A stretch of 32,000 bases of DNA from Telmatocola sphagniphila (GCF_018398935.1 NZ_CP074694.1:5160001-5192000); one strand, 5' to 3'; numbered from the stretch's first letter, positions 6,136 through 30,870 are shown. The notes: generated by a model from the letters alone, not told the origin. Translations and numbers: made by a program.

Positions 6136-8553
6136 ATGCGATTGGGTTGTTTGGCCTTTGTTCTGCTCCTGCCGGGCCTCTTACGAGCCGCTCCGCCCGT
6201 TTCTTACGGTCGGGATGTCCGACCGATCCTGTCCGAGAACTGTTTCTACTGCCACGGACAGGATACCAACCACCGCAAGGCCGATCTGCGCCTGGATACG
6301 GCCGAGGGGCAGAAAGCTGAAAAGCTCATCATCCCCGGTAAGCCGTCGGAGAGCGAACTGGTGCAGCGCATCCTGAGCCACGATGCCGATAAAATGATGC
6401 CGCCGCCCAAATCGAATCGCAAACTGACCGATGCCCAAAAAGAAATTTTGCAGCGCTGGATCGCCGAAGGAGCCAAATTCGAAGGGCACTGGGCATTTCA
6501 AACGCCGGTCCGCCCGGCCGTGCCCAAAGTTGCTTCTGTCAGCAATCCGATTGATGCCTTCATTCGATCCAAGTTGGCCGCTGAAAAAATCTCCCCGGCA
6601 TCCGAAGCCGAAAAAACGGCTCTCATTCGTCGGTTGACGCTCGATCTCATCGGCTTACCACCGACCCCGGAGGAGGTCGATGCCTTTCTGAAAGACACAT
6701 CAGCCAATGCTTATGAGAAAGTCGTCGATCGATTGTTGGCTAATCCGCACTACGGCGAGCGCATGGCCCTGCCCTGGCTCGATGCCGCCCGCTACGCCGA
6801 CAGCAATGGCTTCCAACAGGACGGCGATACTTTCCAATGGGTCTGGCGCGATTGGGTCGTCAAAGCGTTGAACGACAATATGCCCTACGATCGTTTCAGT
6901 ATCGAGCAACTGGCCGGCGACTTGCTACCCAACGCCACGCTCGATCAAAAAATCGCATCGGCCTTTAATCGCAATCACCTGGTCAACGGTGAAGGCGGCG
7001 CCATCCCGGAAGAGCAGCGTTTCAACATTCTTTTTGATCGGGTGGATGTGACCGCAACCAATTGGCTGGGCTTGACAATGGCGTGCTGTCAGTGCCACGA
7101 CCATAAATACGATCCGCTGACCCAGAAAGATTATTATTCGCTGTTGGCGGCCTTCAACAACGTGAGCGAAAACGGGGCCGCGGGCTACCAGTCTTCCAAG
7201 ACGCGCGTTTCGCCTCCTTTCATTGAAGCTCCTTCGCCGGAACAAAAAGCCATGGCCGCTTCGCTCGATAAAATCGCTGGCGATTTGCGCAGCGCGTTGA
7301 CCGAAAAGCAAAAGCTTTGGGAACTGCGTGCCAAGAACGACAAAAAACTGGAAGCGATCCTGAAGAATCCGGCTCAAGCGAAGACTCATTTCGAGGAGAA
7401 GGTGGAAGCGAAACTGGCCGAGCTGGTGAAAGCGGCCGAAGCGGAAGCGCGAAATTATAAGGCGGATGAAATTCCCAAAGTCATGATCATGGCCGATGAT
7501 CGACCGCGGGAAAGCCATATCCTCGATCGCGGCGAGTATCTCAAAAAGAAAGAAAAAGTCACCTTCGCCGTACCGGCCACCTTACCCCCACTGCCCAAAG
7601 AGGCTCCCAAAAATCGGCTCGGCCTGGCCCGCTGGCTATTCACTCCCGAACATCCCCTAACGGCCCGCGTGGCGGTCAACCGGATGTGGCAAACCTTCTT
7701 CGGCGTCGGTCTGGTGAAAACCAGTGAAGACTTCGGGGTGCAGGGCGATGTTCCTCTACAAGCGGAATTGCTCGATTGGCTGGCCGTGGAGTTTCGCGAG
7801 TCGGGCTGGAACGTCAAAAAAATACATCGACTGATCGTGACCAGTGCCACTTATAAACAAAGCTCGCGCGTTTCCGCCGAAGTTTTAGCCAAGGATCCGG
7901 AAAACCGATACCTGACCCGCTTTCCACGCGTCCGGCTGCCGGCCATGATCCTACGCGATCTGGCCCTGGCGACGAGCGGTTTACTCGATTTGCGCATCGC
8001 CGGTAAACCTGTCTATCCTTATCAGCCCGACGGTATCTGGGAGACGCTGGCAATCACCAAGGAACGCGATTTCACTTATCCGAACTCGAGCGGTGCCGAT
8101 CTCTATCGCCGCAGCCTCTACACCTTCTGGCGACGGACGATCAGCCCGGCCAATATGTTCGATGCCTCGGCCCGGCAGGTCTGCAAAGTGAAACCTTCCG
8201 TAACCAACACGCCGTTGCACGCTCTGACGACCTTGAACGATCCGACTTGGACCGAAGCCGCCCGGGCTCTGGCCGTCAAGACGGTCAAGAGCGAGGCGAA
8301 TACCGATGGCCGGCTGGCGTACATCTATCGTCGTGTCCTGTCTCGAGCGCCTACCGAGAAGGAAAAGAAGATTCTGCAGCGAATGCTCGACGAACAGACC
8401 GCCTTCTACAAGAAGGATGAACCGGCCGCGAAAAAATTGCTGAGTGTCGGCGCCAGCCCGATGGACCCCAGCGTCGATGCAGTGACCCAGGCGGCCTGGA
8501 CCAACCTCTGTCTGGCGATTTTCAATTTGGACGAAGCTCTCACCCGCGAGTAA
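6136..8553 (+). CDS. PSCyt1/DUF1549/DUF1553 (PSD1) family protein, planctomycete cytochrome-c-domain protein
   Basis: Signal peptide, heme motif 'CFYCHG' (CxxCH), 'DLIGLPPTPEEVDAF' (DUF1549-type), and 'CCQCHDHKYDP' plus C-terminal DUF1553-type blocks. Confidence 0.9.
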   Translation: MRLGCLAFVLLLPGLLRAAPPVSYGRDVRPILSENCFYCHGQDTNHRKADLRLDTAEGQKAEKLIIPGKPSESELVQRILSHDADKMMPPPKSNRKLTDAQKEILQRWIAEGAKFEGHWAFQTPVRPAVPKVASVSNPIDAFIRSKLAAEKISPASEAEKTALIRRLTLDLIGLPPTPEEVDAFLKDTSANAYEKVVDRLLANPHYGERMALPWLDAARYADSNGFQQDGDTFQWVWRDWVVKALNDNMPYDRFSIEQLAGDLLPNATLDQKIASAFNRNHLVNGEGGAIPEEQRFNILFDRVDVTATNWLGLTMACCQCHDHKYDPLTQKDYYSLLAAFNNVSENGAAGYQSSKTRVSPPFIEAPSPEQKAMAASLDKIAGDLRSALTEKQKLWELRAKNDKKLEAILKNPAQAKTHFEEKVEAKLAELVKAAEAEARNYKADEIPKVMIMADDRPRESHILDRGEYLKKKEKVTFAVPATLPPLPKEAPKNRLGLARWLFTPEHPLTARVAVNRMWQTFFGVGLVKTSEDFGVQGDVPLQAELLDWLAVEFRESGWNVKKIHRLIVTSATYKQSSRVSAEVLAKDPENRYLTRFPRVRLPAMILRDLALATSGLLDLRIAGKPVYPYQPDGIWETLAITKERDFTYPNSSGADLYRRSLYTFWRRTISPANMFDASARQVCKVKPSVTNTPLHALTTLNDPTWTEAARALAVKTVKSEANTDGRLAYIYRRVLSRAPTEKEKKILQRMLDEQTAFYKKDEPAAKKLLSVGASPMDPSVDAVTQAAWTNLCLAIFNLDEALTRE

Positions 8554-19907: not shown

Positions 19908-21197
19908 ATGCCGGATTTGATAGCGCCCCACGGGGGATTGAGCAAACCCATCGATCGCCGATTGACCAACCCCGAATGCCCGTATAAGGAATGGGCCGCC
20001 GGGACCGAGGCGCAATCCCTGAAGTTGAACGGCAGCACTCTGCCGACACTTAAAGTCAGCGATGCCGATCTTTCCACGCTCTATCGCATTGCCGACGGCG
20101 GACTCTCGCCGCTGACCGGTTCGATGACTTCCGAGGAATACAATCGCGTTCTCGAAGAAGAGGTGATCGTTCGCCAGGGCAAGAAATATGCCTGGACGAT
20201 TCCCCTCGCTTTCCCGGCCACCGAAGAAGAAGCCAAGAGTCTGACCCCCGGCAAACCAGCCGCTCTCCTCAACAAAGAGGGCAAACTGGTCGGCCTGATT
20301 GAAGTTAAAGAAGTCTATCCCTGGGACAAGAAGAAATATAACGCTTCGGTTTATGCCACTGAGCGGAACGATCATCCTGGCGCCCGCATCGCCAATGAAG
20401 ATCTCCGCACTTTCTTAGTCGGCGGCGATATCTGGGCCTATCCGCAACCCAAGCATCCTGCTTACGGAGACGTGGTTCTCTCTCCGGAAGAGACGCGCAA
20501 ACTGTTCTCGGCCAAGGGTTGGGAGCGGGTGGTCGCTTTCCAGACCCGCAATCCCCTGCATCGGGCGCACGAATACGCGCTGGTCGTCGGCGCGGAAACG
20601 CTGGCTCGATTGGGCCACAAGGCCGGGGCCGTGTTGAATCCGCTGATCGGCGAAACCAAGGGAGACGATGTGGACGCCGTCACGCGCATGGCGACTTATC
20701 GCGCTCTGATCGAGCGTAAAGCACTCGGCGAAGGGGATACCGATACGGATCTGTGGAACAAGCTGGGCCGCAAGTTCACCGACAATCTGATTCTGCTCGG
20801 TTTGGATATCAAGATGTTCTATGCCGGGCCGAAAGAGGCGGTGATGCACGGCATCTATCGGCAGAACTTCGGGTTCACCGATATCATTATTGGTCGTAAG
20901 CACGCCGATGCGCCGTACGACGACGGCAAGGATATCTGGGACGGCCTGGCCGCGCAGCGCAAGTTCGACACGCTCAAGGGCGAGCTGTTGATTCAGCCGG
21001 TCAAAGTCGGTTTCGCGGCGTTCTTCGAGGAGTTGGGCCGGGTGGGTCTGGTTGACGAGTACGGCCCAAAGGGCTACAAGACGGTGAGCATCAGCGGCCG
21101 GGATCTGCGGGAGCAACTCCGCGGCGGCAAGCTGCCCGACCCGCGCATCATGCGTCCCGAAACGGCCCAGATTCTGATTGAGAGGATGAAGGGGTGA
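19908..21197 (+). CDS. sat: Sulfate adenylyltransferase (ATP sulfurylase)
   Basis: 'VVAFQTRNPLHRAHE' and 'GPKEAVMHGIYRQNFGFTDIIIGRKHAD', with a GAGGAG RBS 7 nt upstream. The C-terminus is '...GKLPDPRIMRPETAQILIERMKG'. Confidence 0.93.
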   Translation: MPDLIAPHGGLSKPIDRRLTNPECPYKEWAAGTEAQSLKLNGSTLPTLKVSDADLSTLYRIADGGLSPLTGSMTSEEYNRVLEEEVIVRQGKKYAWTIPLAFPATEEEAKSLTPGKPAALLNKEGKLVGLIEVKEVYPWDKKKYNASVYATERNDHPGARIANEDLRTFLVGGDIWAYPQPKHPAYGDVVLSPEETRKLFSAKGWERVVAFQTRNPLHRAHEYALVVGAETLARLGHKAGAVLNPLIGETKGDDVDAVTRMATYRALIERKALGEGDTDTDLWNKLGRKFTDNLILLGLDIKMFYAGPKEAVMHGIYRQNFGFTDIIIGRKHADAPYDDGKDIWDGLAAQRKFDTLKGELLIQPVKVGFAAFFEELGRVGLVDEYGPKGYKTVSISGRDLREQLRGGKLPDPRIMRPETAQILIERMKG

Positions 21198-21275
21198 GGC
21201 TCAAATCCTGTCGCCCAACAGTTTTGAAAATGTGGGCCCCTCGACAAGTAGGTCGAAGGGCATTATTGTTTTGGG
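21099..21275 (+). repeat. R1: resident sat 3' end + GTTCAAATCC-type core + terminator (first of five direct copies)
   Basis: Aligned by eye to 22278-22428 and 24228-24432. The core 'CTCAAATCCTGTCGCCC' is at 21200-21216. Confidence 0.85.
21236..21273 (+). terminator. Intrinsic terminator of sat (R1 version)
   Basis: GCCCCTCGAC-aagtag-GTCGAAGGGC forms a 10-bp stem with one mismatch, followed by ATTATTGTTTT. Confidence 0.6.
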
Positions 21276-21453
21276 GACTGGAGTTACAGACTGACGAAGT
21301 TCCAGAATAAAGCTCTCTAAATTTCAAGTTCAAAATTTTGTAAGTGAATTCCATCCGCCGAACACGCCGCCCCCCTTTCGCGCAGCATATTGAGCCCCGT
21401 GCGGTTATAATTATTGAGGTATCCACAACTCAACGTTGCAGAGGATTCAACTA

Positions 21454-21918
21454 ATGATCCCATCTCTACGGGAAGAGTTGGAGAAGGTCGCGAACCCCGA
21501 TGTGGCTGAGGCAATAACGAAGACAACCAGTCGGCTTGCCAATGAGCTTGCCGGGGTTCTCGGTACTATCTCCTCGAAGGAACAGACCACTTTACTTCTT
21601 CTCATCAATCAGACAATGCTTGAAGAGATCGAATCTCGGAACAAGAAACTGGAACGTCGTCGTTTAAGTGAAATGAAAGATGAAAGTGCTCTATCCCACC
21701 AACTCAATATTTCGAGCGGCTTAGGGGAAAAGCTGAAGATTACCGACCCCGATTTGTTGCCGACCTGTGAAGTACCTTCCGAAGTGCTGGAACTTGCAAA
21801 GAGAGAATTTAATGACCAGGAAACTACTGCCGAAATCCGCCGAATTAGGGAATCAGGTGGCCTCTCTTTCAACGACTTTTTTGAAGAACTCGAACGTCTA
21901 GCCCGATCCAACAAATAA
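21454..21918 (+). CDS. Hypothetical acidic coiled-coil protein in the antitoxin position upstream of the ParE/RelE-like gene
   Basis: The ORF ends 6 nt before the next gene. ATG at 21454 ('MIPSLREELEK...') is more plausible than the TTG at 21436. No DNA-binding motif recognised. Confidence 0.55.
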   Translation: MIPSLREELEKVANPDVAEAITKTTSRLANELAGVLGTISSKEQTTLLLLINQTMLEEIESRNKKLERRRLSEMKDESALSHQLNISSGLGEKLKITDPDLLPTCEVPSEVLELAKREFNDQETTAEIRRIRESGGLSFNDFFEELERLARSNK

Positions 21919-21924
21919 ACGCCC

Positions 21925-22230
21925 ATGGATGACTTAGTGCCCTACGAAGTTTCCTACTCCGAAAGAGTTCGGGAAGAACTTCGTGCCCTTATTGCCCGTG
22001 CAAAAAACGCTGGACTTGTCGATGAAGTTTTAAGTGCGCTTAAAGGTATTGAAAAACGATTGCGTCTTTATCCGCAGTTTGGTCAACCTTTGTGGAATCT
22101 TTCTGTCGAACCTGCTCAAATGTGGATGGGCGTAGTAGCTCCCCTAGTCATCCAGTATGTTCTGGATGAATCTCGTCGACAAGTAATGGTTGTTCATCCT
22201 ATCACTCCCTTGCGCAACTCGGGTTTATAA
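21925..22230 (+). CDS. ParE/RelE-superfamily toxin-like protein (101 aa)
   Basis: The size and pattern 'YEVSYSERVREELRAL...IEKRLRLYPQFGQPL...VIQYVLDESRRQVMVVHPI' match the RelE/ParE layout: Y-x-V-x-Y-S start, a mid 'P..G..L', and a C-terminal 'Y.vde....v.v..i'. Confidence 0.6.
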   Translation: MDDLVPYEVSYSERVREELRALIARAKNAGLVDEVLSALKGIEKRLRLYPQFGQPLWNLSVEPAQMWMGVVAPLVIQYVLDESRRQVMVVHPITPLRNSGL

Positions 22231-22277
22231 AGCCTAACGCATAGATTCAATTTGATCATTTGCAAAATTCAAGCTTT

Positions 22278-22428
22278 GGCGGCAAGCTGCCCGATCCGCG
22301 GATCATGCGGCCCGAAACGGCCCAGATTCTGATCGAGCGGATGAAGGGGTAAGGGTTCAAATCCTGTCGCCCAACATTTTTGAAAAGTGGGCCCTTCCGC
22401 GAGAACGTCGAAGGGCATTAGCATTGTT
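22278..22428 (+). repeat. R2: orphan copy of sat codons GGKLPDPRIMRPETAQILIERMKG* + core + terminator-like hairpin
   Basis: Over 75 nt of coding tail I count 6 differences from R1 (gac/gat, cgc/cgg, cgt/cgg, att/atc, agg/cgg, tga/taa). All are synonymous or stop-for-stop. The core 'GTTCAAATCCTGTCGCCC' is at 22355-22372. The hairpin is GCCCTTC...GAAGGGC. Confidence 0.85.
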
Positions 22429-22480
22429 GGACCAGAGTGCATCTTCGATTACGATAGTACCAAAATAAATCGGAGGCCTT

Positions 22481-23152
22481 TTAGACGAGCAGGGTGCGTC
22501 GTTGCCAGTTCACTAAAACGCGAATTGTGCACCCGAGTGTTCCATTCCAGTCATAGCCAAAGCCTTCGTCTTGCAGGCATTCGCAGATCTCGCGAGCGAT
22601 GCCGAGTGCATTCTCGTTGTAGACTTCTTGAGCGACTTCGGACCCGTCTGCCGAGAGCCAACCGTAACCCATGTAGACTGACAGTTTCGTGTTTTCCGAC
22701 AACTTTTCGGCCATATTCTGATCGATGAAAAATGCATAGCCACGAATCCGGTCCTGGAACCCGGGATGACGATGATCGATTACATCGATCCGATTTGAAA
22801 ATTCGCCCAGTGTGCATGAGTCGCAGCAGGGTGAAACTTGCCACAGTAAAATGCCTCGTTCGCGTAAGGTCGCTTCCACTCGATCCAGACGATCGCAGTC
22901 TGTCTCTGAAGGCCATAAGGACTGTTCAGCCGCGAGCTGGGCTTCGGCCCGTTTGAGCTCATTGGCCGCAAATAGAATGAAAGAATCTTGTTCGTTATCA
23001 GGACATTGGTCCTGGAGGTATATATCGCGGCATGCTTCAAGAATGGCATTGTGGTCGTACCTCGACAGCCGAACTTCACCAAGAACGAACCACCGAAGCG
23101 TTGCCCGCATATCGTCGCGCGCCTTGTCGTTCCATTCGTCCTTCTGACTCAT
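22481..23152 (-). CDS. Hypothetical protein, immunity-protein-like (possibly DUF6891-like)
   Basis: 223-aa ORF. The pattern 'RGILLWQVSPCCDSCTLGEF...GYAFFIDQNMAEKL...LSVYMGYG...IAREICECLQDEGFGYDWNGTLGCTIRVLVNWQRR' resembles, from memory only, the DUF6891 family. Confidence 0.6.
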   Translation of the reverse strand: MSQKDEWNDKARDDMRATLRWFVLGEVRLSRYDHNAILEACRDIYLQDQCPDNEQDSFILFAANELKRAEAQLAAEQSLWPSETDCDRLDRVEATLRERGILLWQVSPCCDSCTLGEFSNRIDVIDHRHPGFQDRIRGYAFFIDQNMAEKLSENTKLSVYMGYGWLSADGSEVAQEVYNENALGIAREICECLQDEGFGYDWNGTLGCTIRVLVNWQRRTLLV

Positions 23153-23434
23153 CCTCGGTTCTCCTATTGCACTTCTGCCCTGTGGATTAAAGTCTTATAG
23201 AATTTGGTAATCGCTTTAGCGGCACTAAATCGAAAATAGAGTAGCTAAAGGTGTGTAGGAAACGAACTCCTTCTCACTGGCCGGACTTTGATTTTTCTAC
23301 TCTCAAGTTTGTCTCGTTCACCCCTATGATCCACCCGACATCCGCACGGCAGCCTTGTTGTTTGTTACGGCGGCATCTATATTCTCCATGTCTTCAATTC
23401 AAAGACACATGAGTCGATCTGCTTGGGGCCCCTG

Positions 23435-24214
23435 ATGGCGCAAGACTTCAACACATTCCTGTTCGGTGATCTCCGCATTGCTACCGCAAGTAGTGGCCGG
23501 AGCGACTATGCCCACACCTTTGGTGGGCCGCACGATCGCAAAGGTACTTCCAGAGAGGACTGCAACGGGATACTTATCCATCTTTTACATCGCTTTGATC
23601 TGACCGATCCCGCAATTCCGATTCGCATCCCCGGTGTTCGCTGGCTGCCGCTGTATTACTGCTTCGACTTCCGTGCCAACGACCTGGGCTATCGGCTGAT
23701 CTCCGATGATCAATTAGTGACCTACTTTCCCGATGACGACCCGAACGTTTCGAAGGAAGAGTCGTGGCCCGACGACGAGGGGTATCCTTTAGAATTTCCG
23801 AAGTCCAGCATCAAAATCGCGGCCTACTCTTATAACCCGACTAAATTAAATGACGCTTACCAGTGGGCTGGCATTTTCGGTATCGGGAATCTCTCGAAAC
23901 GAGACCAATTAGCCGCGAAGAAACGTGTTGCCAAATGGATTGACAGCCTGGGATTTGAGGCCCCACCCGAGACGGACGAAGAATTCGACGAAGCATTTTC
24001 CAGTCCGTTTGCACAGGGCAAGCCAGATAGTCCCTGCTTGAATCCTGATTGCTCCAATTGGAAGAAAAAAGGTCAGTTGACTACGATTGCTCTGATGCCT
24101 GCGGAACCGGTCAAAGGCATCCGCACTTTCGGCCGTATGGGCGCTGGTGTGCAGTTGATTGTCCGCATGTGCCCTAGATGCTACACGATTCGAGTCAGCA
24201 ATCAGTGCGACTGA
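23435..24214 (+). CDS. Hypothetical protein with C-terminal Cys4 zinc-ribbon-like motif
   Basis: ATG at 23435 ('MAQDFNTF...'). 'CLNPDCSNW' and 'CPRCYT' lie ~45 aa apart near the C-terminus. The stop at 24214 lies 14 nt before R3. Confidence 0.6.
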   Translation: MAQDFNTFLFGDLRIATASSGRSDYAHTFGGPHDRKGTSREDCNGILIHLLHRFDLTDPAIPIRIPGVRWLPLYYCFDFRANDLGYRLISDDQLVTYFPDDDPNVSKEESWPDDEGYPLEFPKSSIKIAAYSYNPTKLNDAYQWAGIFGIGNLSKRDQLAAKKRVAKWIDSLGFEAPPETDEEFDEAFSSPFAQGKPDSPCLNPDCSNWKKKGQLTTIALMPAEPVKGIRTFGRMGAGVQLIVRMCPRCYTIRVSNQCD

Positions 24215-24227
24215 GTGACAGTTGTTG

Positions 24228-24432
24228 CGGGATCTGCGGGAGCAACTCCGCGGCGGCAAGCTGCCCGATCTGCGCATCATGCAGCCCGAAACGGCCCAGA
24301 TTTTGATCGAGCGGATGAGGGGATAAGGGTTAGTTATTTGTGTTTGGGCCGGCAGGGGTTCAAATCCCGCCGCCCCGACTTGACGAGACGAGAAGCCCTT
24401 CGGCGAGAACGTCGAAGGGCTTTTCTTGTTTG
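24228..24432 (+). repeat. R3: orphan, longer copy of the sat tail (DLREQLRGGKLPDLRIMQPETAQILIERMRG*) + ~28-nt insertion + core + best terminator
   Basis: Over 96 nt of coding tail I count 9 differences from R1, three of them non-synonymous (P>L, R>Q, K>R). There is no start codon, and an in-frame TGA lies at 24216. After the stop (24324-24326) comes 'GGGTTA', then extra sequence, then the core 'GTTCAAATCCCGCCGCCCC' at 24358-24376. Confidence 0.85.
24394..24432 (+). terminator. Intrinsic terminator (R3 version)
   Basis: AGCCCTTCG-gcgagaacgt-CGAAGGGCT forms a perfect 9-bp stem followed by TTTCTTGTTTG. Confidence 0.6.
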
Positions 24433-24540
24433 TTGCCAATGCTTTGCGCCGACCTGCGGTTCCGCTCATCCGGTCCAAAACGCCAAGCAACATCGGCTGA
24501 GCAGCCAGTGCAATGGCTGCAAGTCATTGGCTCAAAAGCG

Positions 24541-24575
24541 GTTGCAGAGTTCAAATCCAGCCGCCAGTTTCACTG
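24541..24575 (+). repeat. R4: degenerate fourth copy of the core only
   Basis: 'GCAGAGTTCAAATCCAGCCGCC' compares with the R3 sequence 'GCAGGGGTTCAAATCCCGCCGCC'. Upstream similarity to the sat tail is weak ('AGCGG.TG.AG'). Confidence 0.4.
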
Positions 24576-24665
24576 TATTCGCGCCAACTCGTCCGACTGT
24601 CTGTCTGAACCTTCCGATGGCAATCGCTGTCTACAATAGGCCAAGCAATAGCAGGGAGAGCGAAT

Positions 24666-25616
24666 GTGGGAACGAGCGCAGCAGAAAAACGCCAGAAACT
24701 CTTCGAGGTCAACAGCGCCGGCATGGCCGCTCTCGGCATGGGCGAGCCGGACACATTCGTCTGCCCTCTCTGCGTGAAGGTGTTCACGAAGGACGACCTG
24801 AAGCCGATAGGCACCCCGAAGGTGCCGGAGTTTCGGTTGACCCTGGCTCACATTATCCCCGAGGCGCTCGGCGGAAGGCTCTGCACGCTCGCCTGCAAGG
24901 ACTGCAACAACGGCGTGGGAAAGGCACTCGAAGCCGCGCTGAAGGAGCAGTTCGTCGTTGAAGACGCGGTCAAGGGCACAGGCAAGTTGAGGGCGCGACT
25001 CGCCGGCGACTTCGGGAACGTGGGCGTCGAGGTCAGCTTCCCCGGCGACGGCGGCCAGCCCTGGCAACTGGAACCCGTGGCGAGAATCTCCAACCCGGTG
25101 CATGCGGCGTCGCTGGACAAGATGCTGGAGGGTACCGAGGCGAACCCGCAGGCGGGGCCGCGCAGTGAACTGAAGTTCGAGTACAAGCATCAGCCCGGCG
25201 TCGTCGGGGCGGCGCTGTACCACGTCGCCTACCTAATGATGTTCCACTATTTCGGCTATCCGTTCGTCGCGAGCCCGCTCGGGCATCAGCTGCGGGCGCA
25301 GTTCCGCGAGCCCGACAAGGACATCCTTCCCCGGTACTTCCCTGTACCGCCGGAGGACTGGGTCGCGGCCAACGTGGACGCCGCGCGAAAGCACGCCGTT
25401 GTGCTGATTCAGGAGCCGTACATCGGCATCCACATCATGATGCGCTTCCATCCCGACAAGGGGCTGCCCCGTGTTATCGGGGTTGCCCTATCCGACCTGG
25501 ACGGGATGTCGTGGCCGACCGGCCCCGTAGGACTCGTTCGCGGGGCCATCGTCCGCATCAAGACCGATGGGGAGGAACTCCCGCCGTGGGTGCCACGGAC
25601 GCGTGCGGTGGAGTAA
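24666..25616 (+). CDS. HNH-like (HNH_5-type) nuclease-domain protein with an uncharacterised ~200-aa C-terminal domain
   Basis: GTG start preceded by AGGGAGAG. The N-terminal 'CPLC...(24 aa)...LAHIIPEALGG...CKDCNNGVG' matches the CxxC...H-(I/V)-I-P-x-x-L-G-G...CxxCN layout of beta-beta-alpha-Me / HNH_5 nucleases. Confidence 0.65.
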   Translation: MGTSAAEKRQKLFEVNSAGMAALGMGEPDTFVCPLCVKVFTKDDLKPIGTPKVPEFRLTLAHIIPEALGGRLCTLACKDCNNGVGKALEAALKEQFVVEDAVKGTGKLRARLAGDFGNVGVEVSFPGDGGQPWQLEPVARISNPVHAASLDKMLEGTEANPQAGPRSELKFEYKHQPGVVGAALYHVAYLMMFHYFGYPFVASPLGHQLRAQFREPDKDILPRYFPVPPEDWVAANVDAARKHAVVLIQEPYIGIHIMMRFHPDKGLPRVIGVALSDLDGMSWPTGPVGLVRGAIVRIKTDGEELPPWVPRTRAVE

Positions 25617-25650
25617 GTAACAGACGAGATTCAACCTCAAGGGGGTTCCA

Positions 25651-25842
25651 TTGGCACGCATTGTCGCGGACACGAACGTCTTCTACTACAATCTCGGGGC
25701 GGGCAATACCGCGCTCGAACTGGCCGATACCAAAGAGCATTGGCTCCGCATCACCCGGCAGAGTGTCAGTGGTGTCGGACCGACGCGCGGATGCGGGCGA
25801 GTGTCGCGTCGATCGAGCTTGAAGACGACAGGGGAGCGGTAA
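25651..25842 (+). CDS. PIN-like N-terminal fragment (possible 5' part of a frameshifted gene)
   Basis: TTG start 5 nt after AAGGGGG. 'ARIVADTNVFYYNL' resembles the first acidic strand of PIN / PIN-like (DUF4935-type) domains. The ORF stops after 63 codons but overlaps the next long ORF by about 100 nt in another frame. Confidence 0.3.
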   Translation: MARIVADTNVFYYNLGAGNTALELADTKEHWLRITRQSVSGVGPTRGCGRVSRRSSLKTTGER

Positions 25843-25874
25843 GCTTCAGAACGGAAGATGGGGAGCCAAGTCGC

Positions 25875-26930
25875 ATGACGCCGATGTCATATCCGGAACT
25901 CGGAACACGAACGGCGGAGATCCGCCAGCGCCTCGCAGCGGCTGATGCCGTCCTGAATCCAGGCGAAGGCCTGGCGCAGGCGCTGACGCAGGCGGAGGTC
26001 GTCGCTAGAACCAACGGGCCGGTCCGCGGTACTCCTCAGCACGAGTTCCTCGCAAACGCGAGGGCATGCACCGCCATGTGGGACCTTGCGGGGATGCTGC
26101 GCACCTGCGCCACCCGCGCGCTCGACATGACGGCTCACCTGCGGAACATCACCACCGGCACGGTCGATTTCGGGGTGCCGGCCGCGCCCAACTCGCAAAG
26201 TCACTACTTCAAGGATTTCCAGCTTGAGCTGTATGTCGCGGCGCAGTGCATCACGGACAACGTGCCTCACGTCGCGCTGAACCCTGTCCCTAACGCGCCC
26301 GACGGCGACCTCTACCTTGAGACTCTTCGTTGCGAGATCAAGCACCCCAACTCGCTCGGCCAGCTGAGCGACTATCTCAAGAAGTTCAACAAGGCACTTC
26401 AGGACCGTAACCTGTACGGGGTGTTCGTCACCGGCATTGAAGACATGTTCAGCGTGTTCCCGCCCGAGATGTTCCCCGACGACGCGGCGTTCCAGGCATG
26501 GCTCACGCAGAAGCGGCAGGAGGCGGACTTCTACGCGAGGACGTTTTTCCGGATGGCCGCGGGTCGTGACCGTATCCTCGCGACCGTCCAGCTGTGGAGC
26601 TTCTGGTACCAGGCCGGAGGCGCGGTGTCGCTTCACCGCGAAGGAAATGCCATCGTCTTCGACCACCGCGCCGGAATCCCGGCTCAACAGCAGCAGGACG
26701 CAGAGCGGATCGCCCGGGTCTTCAATCCGCACTTCCGCAGATGGACCCAGATCGAGACGGCCGTCCAAAATCTCATCAGCGACAGCGAAAGGACGCGTCT
26801 GCGCGAGTCCCTGCACAAGAAGGCCTACCAGATCTGGCAAGGCGAGGGCGAGCCCAGAGAGGGCCGCGCCCTCGCGAACTGGCTCCAGGCCAAATCCGAC
26901 TACGGCTTGGTACTGAACACGACGATCTGA
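25875..26930 (+). CDS. Hypothetical protein with PD-(D/E)xK-like nuclease core and C-terminal DUF2934-like motif
   Basis: The helix 'FQLELYVAAQ', then 'PDGDLYLE' and 'LRCEIKH', fit the E...D...ExK arrangement. The C-terminal 'KKAYQIWQGEGEPREGRALANWLQAKSDYG' is DUF2934-like. The frame is open from 25740 (TTG). ATG at 25875 follows GGGGAG, and ATG at 25791 is also possible. Confidence 0.6.
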   Translation: MTPMSYPELGTRTAEIRQRLAAADAVLNPGEGLAQALTQAEVVARTNGPVRGTPQHEFLANARACTAMWDLAGMLRTCATRALDMTAHLRNITTGTVDFGVPAAPNSQSHYFKDFQLELYVAAQCITDNVPHVALNPVPNAPDGDLYLETLRCEIKHPNSLGQLSDYLKKFNKALQDRNLYGVFVTGIEDMFSVFPPEMFPDDAAFQAWLTQKRQEADFYARTFFRMAAGRDRILATVQLWSFWYQAGGAVSLHREGNAIVFDHRAGIPAQQQQDAERIARVFNPHFRRWTQIETAVQNLISDSERTRLRESLHKKAYQIWQGEGEPREGRALANWLQAKSDYGLVLNTTI

Positions 26931-27196
26931 GCGCCGGACATACCCTCGGCGGCAAGCACTCTGTGCATTGGTCTTATCGATCGAAGCGTTCGCGGCTTTG
27001 CTCCTTGCGCCCGTCGGTGTTCACGACCGAAGCGAGAAACGGCGAGTGGCGAATCGCCCCGGTCACATCGCGTTCTAAGGCTGACCAAACTGGACGCTTT
27101 GGTCGCAACCACTTACTTCATAATGTCTTGTGGTTCTGATCCTTTGTCCGATTTCCGGGGGAAATGCCGCCGAATCCCGGCTTCCCAGCCCCTGAT

Positions 27197-27275
27197 CCCG
27201 GCCAGAAAAAGTTCTAACGGCGTCTTGTCGCCCCGACTATTTTCAGACACAAGCACTTCGCCGACAACTCCAGGT
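27197..27275 (+). repeat. R5: strongly degenerate fifth copy of core + terminator region (right boundary of islet C)
   Basis: 'CCGGCCAG..GTTCTAA..GTCGCCCCGACT..AGAC..AAGC.CTTCG.CGA.AAC' aligns by eye with the R3 sequence 'CCGGCAGGGGTTCAAATCCCGCCGCCCCGACT..AGACGAGAAGCCCTTCGGCGAGAAC' at very roughly 60-65% identity. 'GTTCTGATC' at ~27132 may be a relic of the sat tail 'ATTCTGATC'. Confidence 0.35.
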
Positions 27276-29990: not shown

Positions 29991-30470
29991 TTATTTCTCA
30001 AAACTTACCCAACTCTCGGGAAGCCATGACAGGAAATTCTGAAGACGGGCCGCAGCTTCCTTTATGCTCATGTTTTCCGCTGAGGAATCGTCTTCGTGTG
30101 CCCAACGATTGCGTACCCTTCGAACCGCCTGAGCATTAGCTCGGATCGACGCCGAAATTCCCTGCCCTCTCCGGCCACCGATCGAATCGATCAACACGGC
30201 TGCGTCTTCGCGACGGGTCGAGTCGTTATGTCTGGCCCGGTCGAATGACCTCAGACCAGCTTCAAACGCTGCGAACAATCTTACGAGGTAAGTGCCTTCG
30301 AGGTTTTCGTAGGCAGTCCGAAGGCTCGAGCGGACGGACTCGCTCTCAACGAGAATAGATGGATTTTTGGCAACTTCGTTCAGAAGGCGGTCCACCGCGA
30401 ATTGGGCAGCTCTGTATTCGCGCTCGACCTCCTTGAGATGTTCGTGCCAGTCAAACCGAAGGTGTGGCAT
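29991..30470 (-). CDS. HEPN-domain protein (R-x4-H motif, Swt1-like)
   Basis: 'AQAVRRVRNRWAHEDD' contains the RNxxxH HEPN signature within a predicted all-helical ~159-aa protein. The ATG at 30470 overlaps the upstream gene by 20 nt. The track start at 30551 is probably an over-extension. Confidence 0.65.
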   Translation of the reverse strand: MPHLRFDWHEHLKEVEREYRAAQFAVDRLLNEVAKNPSILVESESVRSSLRTAYENLEGTYLVRLFAAFEAGLRSFDRARHNDSTRREDAAVLIDSIGGRRGQGISASIRANAQAVRRVRNRWAHEDDSSAENMSIKEAAARLQNFLSWLPESWVSFEK

Positions 30471-30870
30471 GGGCGGCGATGGAGTCGAGGACGCGGACCA
30501 GAGATTTCTCATCCAAAGAAAGAGTGTCGGGTTCGTTGAAAGACTCAGCAAGCGTATCGTCCGAGAAGGAGTAATGGATCATCCATTGATTTTCGCGGAA
30601 ATACAAACTGGCCAAGTCTTCGTAGGTCGGCATCAAATAAAGGTCGACTGCTGCATCAGCTCCCGGGACGTCATACGCGACCGGGTCGAGCAGCACGCGG
30701 GTCGGACCCTTTTGCAGATAGAGTGCGGAGATTTCAAAAATGGAACGATCTGATGCCCGCATTCGCTTGGGATAAAGCTTTGTCGTCCAACCGACGGGCT
30801 CGGCCCAGGTTTTCACGTTCTCAATAAGATCGTCTACGAGCCGTATAAATTGAGTCTGCGTATTCGACAT
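30451..30870 (-). CDS. Hypothetical 139-aa protein, upstream partner of the HEPN gene
   Basis: GGAGAG RBS 6 nt before the ATG at 30870. No MNT/nucleotidyltransferase or HTH motif recognised. The gene is translationally coupled to the HEPN gene by overlap. Confidence 0.65.
   Translation of the reverse strand: MSNTQTQFIRLVDDLIENVKTWAEPVGWTTKLYPKRMRASDRSIFEISALYLQKGPTRVLLDPVAYDVPGADAAVDLYLMPTYEDLASLYFRENQWMIHYSFSDDTLAESFNEPDTLSLDEKSLVRVLDSIAAHATPSV

Follow-up and report, generated by a model that had tools for sequence, protein, structure and literature searches.

A GC-rich islet of the Telmatocola sphagniphila chromosome probably carries independent stand-alone nuclease genes rather than a single defence system

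A GC-rich islet in the chromosome of Telmatocola sphagniphila (Planctomycetota) raises the question of whether adjacent nuclease-like genes form one system or merely share an islet. The stretch analyzed, called the window below, comprises 32,000 nt, and all coordinates refer to it unless a related locus (L numbers) is named. The islet, islet C, holds three open reading frames (ORFs), named g1 (KIH39_20765), g2 (KIH39_20770) and g3 (KIH39_20775). The first ORF is 100% identical to KIH39_20765, and all three products are labeled hypothetical by NCBI. A previous reading made from the sequence alone (the sequence-only reading) had proposed that these genes constitute a candidate defence-type system of two or three nucleases. 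Comparison with related loci and proteins led us to favour, at a probability of about 0.6, another explanation, in which islet C is a small mobile or once-mobile islet without an integrase that carries a mosaic of independent stand-alone nuclease genes and no single system.

Limits, mosaic history and relatives of islet C

The limits of islet C were set by locus comparison. Positions 20-2899 of metagenome contig L003 matched window 24357-27236 (+ strand) at 97.9% identity, and because the match diverges outside this segment on both sides, islet C was defined as a discrete 2,880-bp unit at 24357-27236 with a GC content of 0.622. The homology of L013, L030 and L027 to the window begins at 24355-24371, with identities to the islet of 88%, 93% and 86-91%, respectively. 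The islet drawn in the sequence-only reading at 24433-27196 is real, but its limits were off. The rest of the window has a GC content of 0.533, and the islet lies 3.8 standard deviations above same-size windows taken elsewhere in the stretch, whose maximum was 0.584. The GC content at third codon positions (GC3) was 0.82-0.84 for g1 and g3 versus 0.56-0.72 for host genes. The compositional anomaly is therefore real, and the GC-richness noted before was confirmed. The presence of the same unit in L003 between different flanks supports the proposal of a cassette acquired at an insertion hotspot; judged from these comparisons, islet C is a small, horizontally acquired islet. The tight, same-strand spacing of the three ORFs and the absence of methyltransferase, helicase and ATPase genes inside the islet also held, and no terminator was predicted between the islet genes. 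A cognate methyltransferase, as expected for restriction-modification types I-III, was found neither among the islet ORFs nor among the flanking genes scanned.

The middle gene revealed how the islet was assembled. g2 is a 63-aa ORF at 25651-25842 (+), and a tblastn search matched its first ~25 residues to the start of a 295-aa PIN-like gene (L013 1387-2274), which lies directly downstream of the g1 homologue in L013. L013 thus carries g1 and the intact PIN-like gene and no g3, and its DNA homology to the window (88%) breaks off at 25726. L001 and L002, on the other hand, match the window over the g3 gene body alone (25863-26893). Adjacency of g1 and g3 was observed only in the window, L003-5 (98%), L030 (93%) and L027-29 (86-91%). 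On these breakpoints, all g1-g3 adjacencies descend from one recombination event that replaced most of the PIN-like gene by g3. The intact PIN-like family comprises 38 clusters of ~290-aa proteins, with D11-T12-N13, E44, D255, D258 and T274 invariant in the family alignment. Like VapC-type PIN nucleases, the intact relative has a D...E...D...(D/E) set; unlike them, this acidic set is split by a ~170-aa insertion, the Pfam PIN match is weak (E 0.023) and the window copy is non-functional. g2 retains the first Asp (in a DTNV motif) and lacks E44, D255 and D258, and it gave no match in Pfam, PADLOC, NCBIfam or PHROGs. By its sequence, g2 is a truncated pseudogene stump and no functional gene. The sequence-only reading, which had suggested a PIN-like first strand, was correct as to the ancestry of g2 but not as to a working gene, of which ~25 homologous codons are left. 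One member of the PIN-like family, P0173 (389 aa), has at its C-terminus a DUF433 domain, typically of antitoxin type.

In L027-29, g1 and g3 are fused in frame, since 178 nt (window 25609-25786) that include the g1 stop codon and the g2 stump have been deleted. The fusion protein, P0190 (687 aa, L027 1525-3588), was independently assembled from three sequencing runs (Logan SRR11245131, SRR11245133 and SRR11245134). It may be a neutral by-product of losing a dead spacer, or it may be a sign that the two nucleases work together in this lineage.

The company of each gene family was compared by an all-against-all ORF comparison within ±3 kb of 9 g3-family and 10 g1-family loci. No neighbour family recurred across these loci outside the islet lineage. 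g1 and g3 did not co-occur at 7 further g3-family loci and at least 7 further g1-family loci. Relatives of g3 stand without g1 in L001 (beside an IS200-type transposase), in the P0008 contig and in L008-L012. Relatives of g1 stand without g3 in L006, L007, L013-L019, the P0029 contig and the phage locus L032. In the P0029 contig the g1 relative is flanked by ScoMcrA-like HNH_2, HNH, DUF5131 and NOV_C genes, and in L019 it directly follows a TrwC relaxase. Intact PIN-like relatives without g1 or g3 were found in L022-L026: among ArdC, methyltransferase and KAP NTPase genes (L022, L023), inside a phage-tail-like cluster (L024, L025) and beside DDE transposases (L026). The three families were never together outside the one islet lineage. 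The claim of a three-gene system was not sustained, with g2 truncated, distant homologues each standing alone and no recurring neighbour. A check of the islet genes against PADLOC for defence systems gave no match at E <= 1, and the NCBIfam, PHROGs and PADLOC libraries contained nothing beyond HNH for the islet products. Other neighbours of the relatives are of conflict type, including staphylococcal-type nuclease, ligase and SRAP genes, a RES toxin, DUF4062, a giant AAA_16 protein, an ImmA/IrrE peptidase, an MNT-type nucleotidyltransferase, IS200, IS66, IS1595 and Mutator transposases, and AbiH just past a phage lysis cassette. Given this company, a defence role of the islet genes is plausible. 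In L001, a 260-aa gene precedes the g3 homologue; it was considered as a counterpart of g1 and proved to be unrelated to it.

The ends of the islet were then compared between loci. The left end is formed by a tRNA-Pro 3′-end-like fragment (T-arm and acceptor strand, GGTTCAAATCCCGCCGCCCCGAC; 24357-24379, +), which is collinear with the tRNA-Pro(TGG) of L013; its pattern has 4 matches in the window against 0.41 expected. ARAGORN and Rfam gave a 13-nt T-loop match alone at this boundary, so that a tRNA or tmRNA gene was rejected in favour of a fragment. It is followed by a conserved left arm, a 16-bp hairpin with a T-run (24390-24425, +) that resembles an intrinsic terminator; the hairpin is also present in L003 and L013, has variants in L027 and L030, and had zero matches in the viral-contig scan. 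At the right end, a motif conserved across loci (CCGGCTTCCCAGCCCC...AAAAGTTCTAACGGCGTCTTGTCGCCCCGA; 27164-27258, +) is homologous to L013 2368-2434, to L013 2784-2878 and to the right ends of L003 and L027. It closes on the 10-nt core repeat CGCCCCGACT, which stands at both islet ends (24370-24379 and 27229-27238, +). A single match to the pattern AAAAGTYCWA-N8-12-CNCCCYGA was found in the window (0.00 expected), and the pattern is present at all islet junctions of L003, L013 and L027-29. The att-like flanking repeats claimed earlier were borne out in part: the long repeat exists at the left only, with no significant long copy at the right, and the two ends share the 10-nt core. Direct repeats of a tRNA 3′ end, a feature of integrative elements at tRNA sites, are thus present at both ends.

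The HNH and PD-(D/E)xK-like families

g1 (24666-25616, +) encodes 316 aa, with an N-terminal HNH_5 domain (~residues 30-96) and a C-terminal domain of ~220 aa. The HNH_5 assignment of the sequence-only reading was upheld, as residues 55-96 matched PF14279 with 35.5 bits (gathering score 27.5, E 9.7e-9) and a PHROG HNH family also matched (E 2e-4). All 13 members of the family share C33, C36, C77, C80 and N81, and 12 of them have H62, which agrees with the pattern CPLC...CKDCNN picked out before. g1 is thus a putative zinc-finger HNH (beta-beta-alpha-metal) DNA endonuclease on sequence grounds. Its C-terminal domain, rightly called unrecognized although estimated at ~200 aa, matched no family. 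The AlphaFold model of g1 was of moderate quality, with a predicted local distance difference test (pLDDT) score of 67.7. With 15 clusters among 5.8 billion, this is a very rare family, and a ratio of nonsynonymous to synonymous substitution rates (dN/dS) of 0.18-0.25 indicates purifying selection.

Among known enzymes, g1 shares with the HNH_5 His-Me finger endonucleases the CxxC...H...CxxCN core above the Pfam threshold; it differs from them in that the HNH domain is N-terminal and fused to a family-specific ~220-aa domain without known fold, and in the rarity of the family. Among HNH_5 (PF14279) enzymes are the uncharacterized 'group 8' of a survey of His-Me finger proteins (PMC5714182) and the HNH proteins that accompany AAA15/21 ATPases in Septu-like defence (PMC11464382); unlike the latter, g1 is solo, with no ATPase partner and no PADLOC match. 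HNH_5 has also been reported among the common cargo of integron cassettes (PMC7370490). The single-gene layout without a methyltransferase, and the combination of a nuclease with a separate reader or regulatory domain, are reminiscent of McrA/ScoMcrA type IV or solitary restriction endonucleases, and the g1 relative in the P0029 contig sits between ScoMcrA-like genes. Unlike type IV enzymes, g1 has no recognizable modified-base reader (SRA, SBD, YTH, etc.).

Two further observations concern g1 relatives. In L015 (5353-5596), the first 244 nt of g1 occur alone, with homology starting exactly from the start codon and 82% amino-acid identity over 84 residues, a further sign of gene-level recombination among islets. 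In an IMG/VR phage lineage (L032; also L031 and L033-L036), a g1 homologue spanning both domains was detected (hhalign probability 99.6%, E 9e-24), in which Asp stands in place of the HNH catalytic His. It lies right after endolysin and spanin genes and adjoins an AbiH gene (L032 5989-6900 and 7064-8383), with a VRR-NUC-like gene nearby. AbiH was rejected as a conserved partner of g1-like genes, since all six phage loci belong to one lineage and count as a single observation.

g3 (25875-26930, +) encodes 351 aa, comprising a helical bundle (residues 1-90), a PD-(D/E)xK-like core (~95-300) and a helical DUF2934 tail (~303-343). Its length had been given as ~350-395 aa; the shorter value holds and the longer does not, since homologues begin with MxPMSYPEL, a GGGGAG ribosome-binding site lies 9 nt 5′ of ATG 25875, and NCBI uses the same start. 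A 395/396-aa product from an upstream TTG was rejected on the same evidence. A word-indexed search returned 19 clusters of the family among 5.8 billion, and a profile scan of 1.84 billion proteins returned 119 representatives at 50%-identity clustering. Members are typically 290-300 aa, and ten diverse ones had no Pfam match. The AlphaFold model of g3 (pLDDT 87.2, predicted template modelling score 0.81) places the N-terminal helical bundle ahead of a core of helix 111-127, strands 133-135, 146-148 and 151-156, helix 161-177 and strand 182-187, that is, an a-b-b-b-a-b topology. The core residues are E118, D145, E154-x-K156 and E189-D190. In 78 full-length relatives, E118 is conserved in 77/77 (one gap) and K156 in 75, an acidic residue (D or E) stands at position 145 in 63, and E or Q is found at position 154 in 67; K113, D114, H157 and E189-D190 are also strongly conserved. 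The residues named in the sequence-only reading (E in FQLELYV, D in PDGDLYLE and ExK in CEIKH) are among the most conserved of the family.

The top PDB match of g3 by Foldseek was 4g6v_A (E 1.9e-3, probability 0.99), and weak matches to viral structures were enriched in restriction endonucleases, resolvases, endonuclease I, DUF559, MmcB and YqaJ-like proteins. 4g6v is the PD-(D/E)XK tRNase toxin CdiA-CT of Burkholderia pseudomallei 1026b, whose nearest structural neighbour is MspJI and whose catalytic residues are E187, D214, D223 and K242 (PMC9086364). Like this toxin and other PD-(D/E)xK nucleases, g3 combines the a-b-b-b-a-b topology with E, D and (E/Q)xK in canonical places; what sets it apart from PD-(D/E)xK nucleases is an additional helical bundle at the N-terminus, a C-terminal beta-hairpin region and, in this subfamily, the DUF2934 tail. 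It further differs from CdiA-CT/CdiI in being free-standing, with no delivery region and no immunity gene or conserved downstream gene. The modelled topology, the conserved E...D...ExK residues and the Foldseek match together support the PD-(D/E)xK core that had been proposed, and indicate that g3 very probably has this fold. A nuclease activity of g3, on a DNA or RNA substrate, is predicted from the model. Searches of PDB sequence profiles with shallow and deep g3 alignments and with a g1 alignment gave chance matches only, and g3 showed no sequence similarity to Pfam (apart from its sub-threshold tail), NCBIfam, PHROG, PADLOC or PDB entries. The dN/dS of g3 was 0.07-0.17, indicating purifying selection.

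The DUF2934-like tail seen before is below threshold in the window copy (19.4 bits, gathering score 22) but above it in the aligned tails of the closest relatives P0002 and P0006 (28.5 and 27.9 bits), so that the assignment of the window g3 to DUF2934 rests on homology. This tail is confined to the seven closest g3 relatives. P0016 has a weak DUF2934-like segment at its N-terminus (residues 4-35, E 0.064) and none at its C-terminus, which suggests that DUF2934 is a movable terminal module in the family. No functional data on DUF2934 were found in the literature. In L008 (6125-7321, a Thermoanaerobaculia metagenome-assembled genome), one ORF continues from a g3-family core (residues 1-291) into NTP_transf_2 (310-388), and it may represent a fusion to an MNT-type, toxin-antitoxin-related module. 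In L001, imperfect tandem repeats (GGCTTTGCGGGGTCACGA-like) with inverted copies lie at 7590-7960 upstream of the g3 homologue P0002, and an IS200-type Y1 transposase gene lies downstream of it.

Explanations for the gene pair

Stand-alone conflict nucleases give the best explanation of islet C because the intact genes are rare, patchily distributed, under purifying selection and foreign in composition, and because their relatives stand near mobile, toxin or defence genes. Under this explanation, the islet family would insert at sequences resembling the tRNA-Pro 3′ end, either moved by an integrase encoded elsewhere or now persisting as a decayed remnant. g3 recombined into the islet and destroyed the PIN-like gene, leaving the g2 stump. 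In g1, target choice or control of activity presumably falls to the C-terminal domain, and for the putative nuclease of g3 the helical N-domain and the DUF2934 tail would have such a role. Each intact gene would act alone, either in defence against phage or mobile DNA or in a selfish or addictive function for islet persistence. Several results weigh against this explanation. No integrase or excised form of the islet was seen, and the case for mobility comes from locus comparison; an integrase or recombinase was found neither in the islet, nor in the flanking ORFs scanned or read, nor among the genes called on L003, L013, L027 and L030. The C-terminal domain of g1 is moderately modelled, and Foldseek against PDB gave no meaningful match for it. 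The fold of g3 was assigned by topology and one borderline Foldseek match, while Pfam and PDB-sequence profile searches were empty. PADLOC-DB v2 gave no match for g1, g2, g3 or the intact PIN-like relative (E <= 1). Finally, the adjacency of g1 and g3 was kept across ~10% nucleotide divergence and became an in-frame fusion in one variant, which could mean cooperation.

The last point bears on the view that a single coordinated multi-nuclease system for defence or abortive infection is made up of all three genes, or of g1 and g3 at the least, with one member sensing or licensing and the other executing. We consider this unlikely, and what keeps it in consideration is mainly the natural fusion, recovered in three separate assemblies. 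The shared strand, the tight spacing without a predicted terminator, the adjacency retained at 86-98% nucleotide identity (the window, L003-5, L030 and L027-29), and the purifying selection on both genes would also fit such a system. However, g2 lacks three of the four PIN acidic residues, all adjacencies belong to one islet lineage and so amount to one evolutionary event, the L013 islet pairs g1 with a different partner, and the distant homologues of both families are always apart and have no common neighbour. The fusion itself goes back to the loss of the dead g2 spacer, possibly a neutral change, and PADLOC holds no matching system. A narrower form of this view, in which g1 and g3 have come to work in this islet lineage, up to their fusion into one 687-aa polypeptide in one population, as an undescribed two-nuclease anti-phage or anti-plasmid module on unrecognized tiny integrase-less cassettes stacking at tRNA-Pro-3′-end-like sites in Gemmataceae, appears equally doubtful.

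Two single-gene accounts are less probable still. g1 could be a selfish homing-type HNH endonuclease that cuts empty tRNA-Pro-3′-end-like sites (GGTTCAAATCCTGTCGCCCCGA), so that the islet would be copied in by repair with its conserved arms as homology, g3 and the PIN-like gene being passengers. Free-standing HNH genes are classic homing endonucleases (PMC5714182), the left arm is followed by g1 as the first gene in all islet copies, none of these copies showed an integrase, both arms are conserved between islets of different cargo, and the cassettes occur in tandem. This account is nevertheless improbable, as distant g1 relatives (L006, L007, L016, L019 and L032) are not beside tRNA-like ends, neighbouring cassettes with the same arms have no g1-like gene, and the phage subfamily of g1 has lost the catalytic His. 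Alternatively, g3 could be a toxin-type RNase like CdiA-CT, an addiction or abortive-infection effector restrained by its own N-terminal helical domain or by DUF2934, with g1 unrelated to it. The closest structural match is indeed a tRNA-cleaving toxin (4g6v; PMC9086364), g3 relatives have a RES toxin as a neighbour and an MNT-type nucleotidyltransferase as a neighbour or fusion partner, and the DUF2934 module occurs at either end of the core in different relatives. On the other hand, none of the family members has a conserved immunity or antitoxin gene beside it, no delivery domain is present, the Foldseek match is marginal, and the weak viral matches are mostly DNA nucleases (restriction enzymes, resolvases and endonuclease I). 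We consider a toxin-type RNase quite unlikely.

With the islet regarded as a mosaic of stand-alone genes, what is new is the description of its two families. The HNH, PD-(D/E)xK and PIN folds were already known, as were stacked islets at tRNA-like sites. The g1 and g3 families (15 and 19 clusters among 5.8 billion) were uncharacterized, g3 has no curated (Pfam) model, and both now receive a first structural and evolutionary description. g3 would provide the first link of DUF2934 to a nuclease, and g1 and g3 are single-gene candidates for defence or toxicity. The locus also illustrates that chance neighbours in an islet can mimic a system, and that one lineage-specific adjacency differs from co-occurrence. 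Planctomycetes may have a gene-shuffling mechanism, as hinted by the integrase-less tandem cassettes that share conserved arms and stand at tRNA-Pro-like sites.

Insertion site and neighbouring cassettes

Related loci showed how such islets are arranged. In L013, an intact tRNA-Pro(TGG) immediately precedes the islet, behind which stands, in tandem, another small cassette that bears the same right-end motif, and the array ends in an exact 20-nt copy of the tRNA 3′ end. In L027, the islet lies between two other cassette ends. The stacked cassettes of L013 (127-2860) and L027 (1209-3902) carry varied cargo head to tail between a common left hairpin arm and a ~70-nt right-end motif, which resembles a degenerate tRNA T-arm and acceptor. 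They may be one family mobilized by an integrase encoded elsewhere. Tycheposons, islands flanked by partial tRNAs, have been described (bioRxiv 10.1101/2020.12.28.424599). Islet C resembles these and other tRNA-targeting tandem elements in its partial tRNA 3′ ends, head-to-tail stacking and accessory or defence-type cargo. Unlike tycheposons, the units here are 0.4-2.9 kb long, have conserved arms on both sides and were never seen with an integrase, and the Telmatocola site is a tRNA 3′ fragment abutting a stop codon, with no tRNA gene.

This stop codon belongs to the ATP sulfurylase gene (sat; ORF 19908-21197), which lies upstream of the islets. At 21195-21215, the sat stop codon abuts a tRNA-Pro 3′-end-like fragment (GGCTCAAATCCTGTCGCC), and because the two are directly joined, there is no intact tRNA at this insertion hotspot. 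It looks as if the 5′ part of the tRNA gene at the sat site has been lost or replaced. The last ~90-125 nt of sat, the T-arm (GGTTCAAATCC...) and the hairpin are present in three direct copies of ~93% identity, at 21100-21270, 22278-22423 and 24225-24425. The third copy, in which 30 nt are inserted between stop codon and T-arm, forms the left flank of islet C. A long sat 3′ repeat at the right boundary of islet C was also considered and rejected, since its local alignment score of 24 compared with scores of up to 34 for shuffled sequence.

The sat repeats bound two further islets, islet A (~21270-22278) and islet B (~22424-24225), as well as the left side of islet C, and no integrase was seen there. 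Islet A contains two small adjacent ORFs (21436-21918 and 21925-22230) without a family match and with a GC content of 0.47. Islet B encodes a DUF6891 protein (22481-23152, -; E 2.3e-40) and a 263-aa protein without a match (23423-24214, +). Just past the islets, a 186-aa ORF with an RNRWAH motif (29991-30551, -) gave a weak Swt1-like HEPN match (E 0.014), and an overlapping 139-aa ORF upstream of it (30451-30870, -) had no family match; this pair (29991-30870) may encode a HEPN toxin and its partner.

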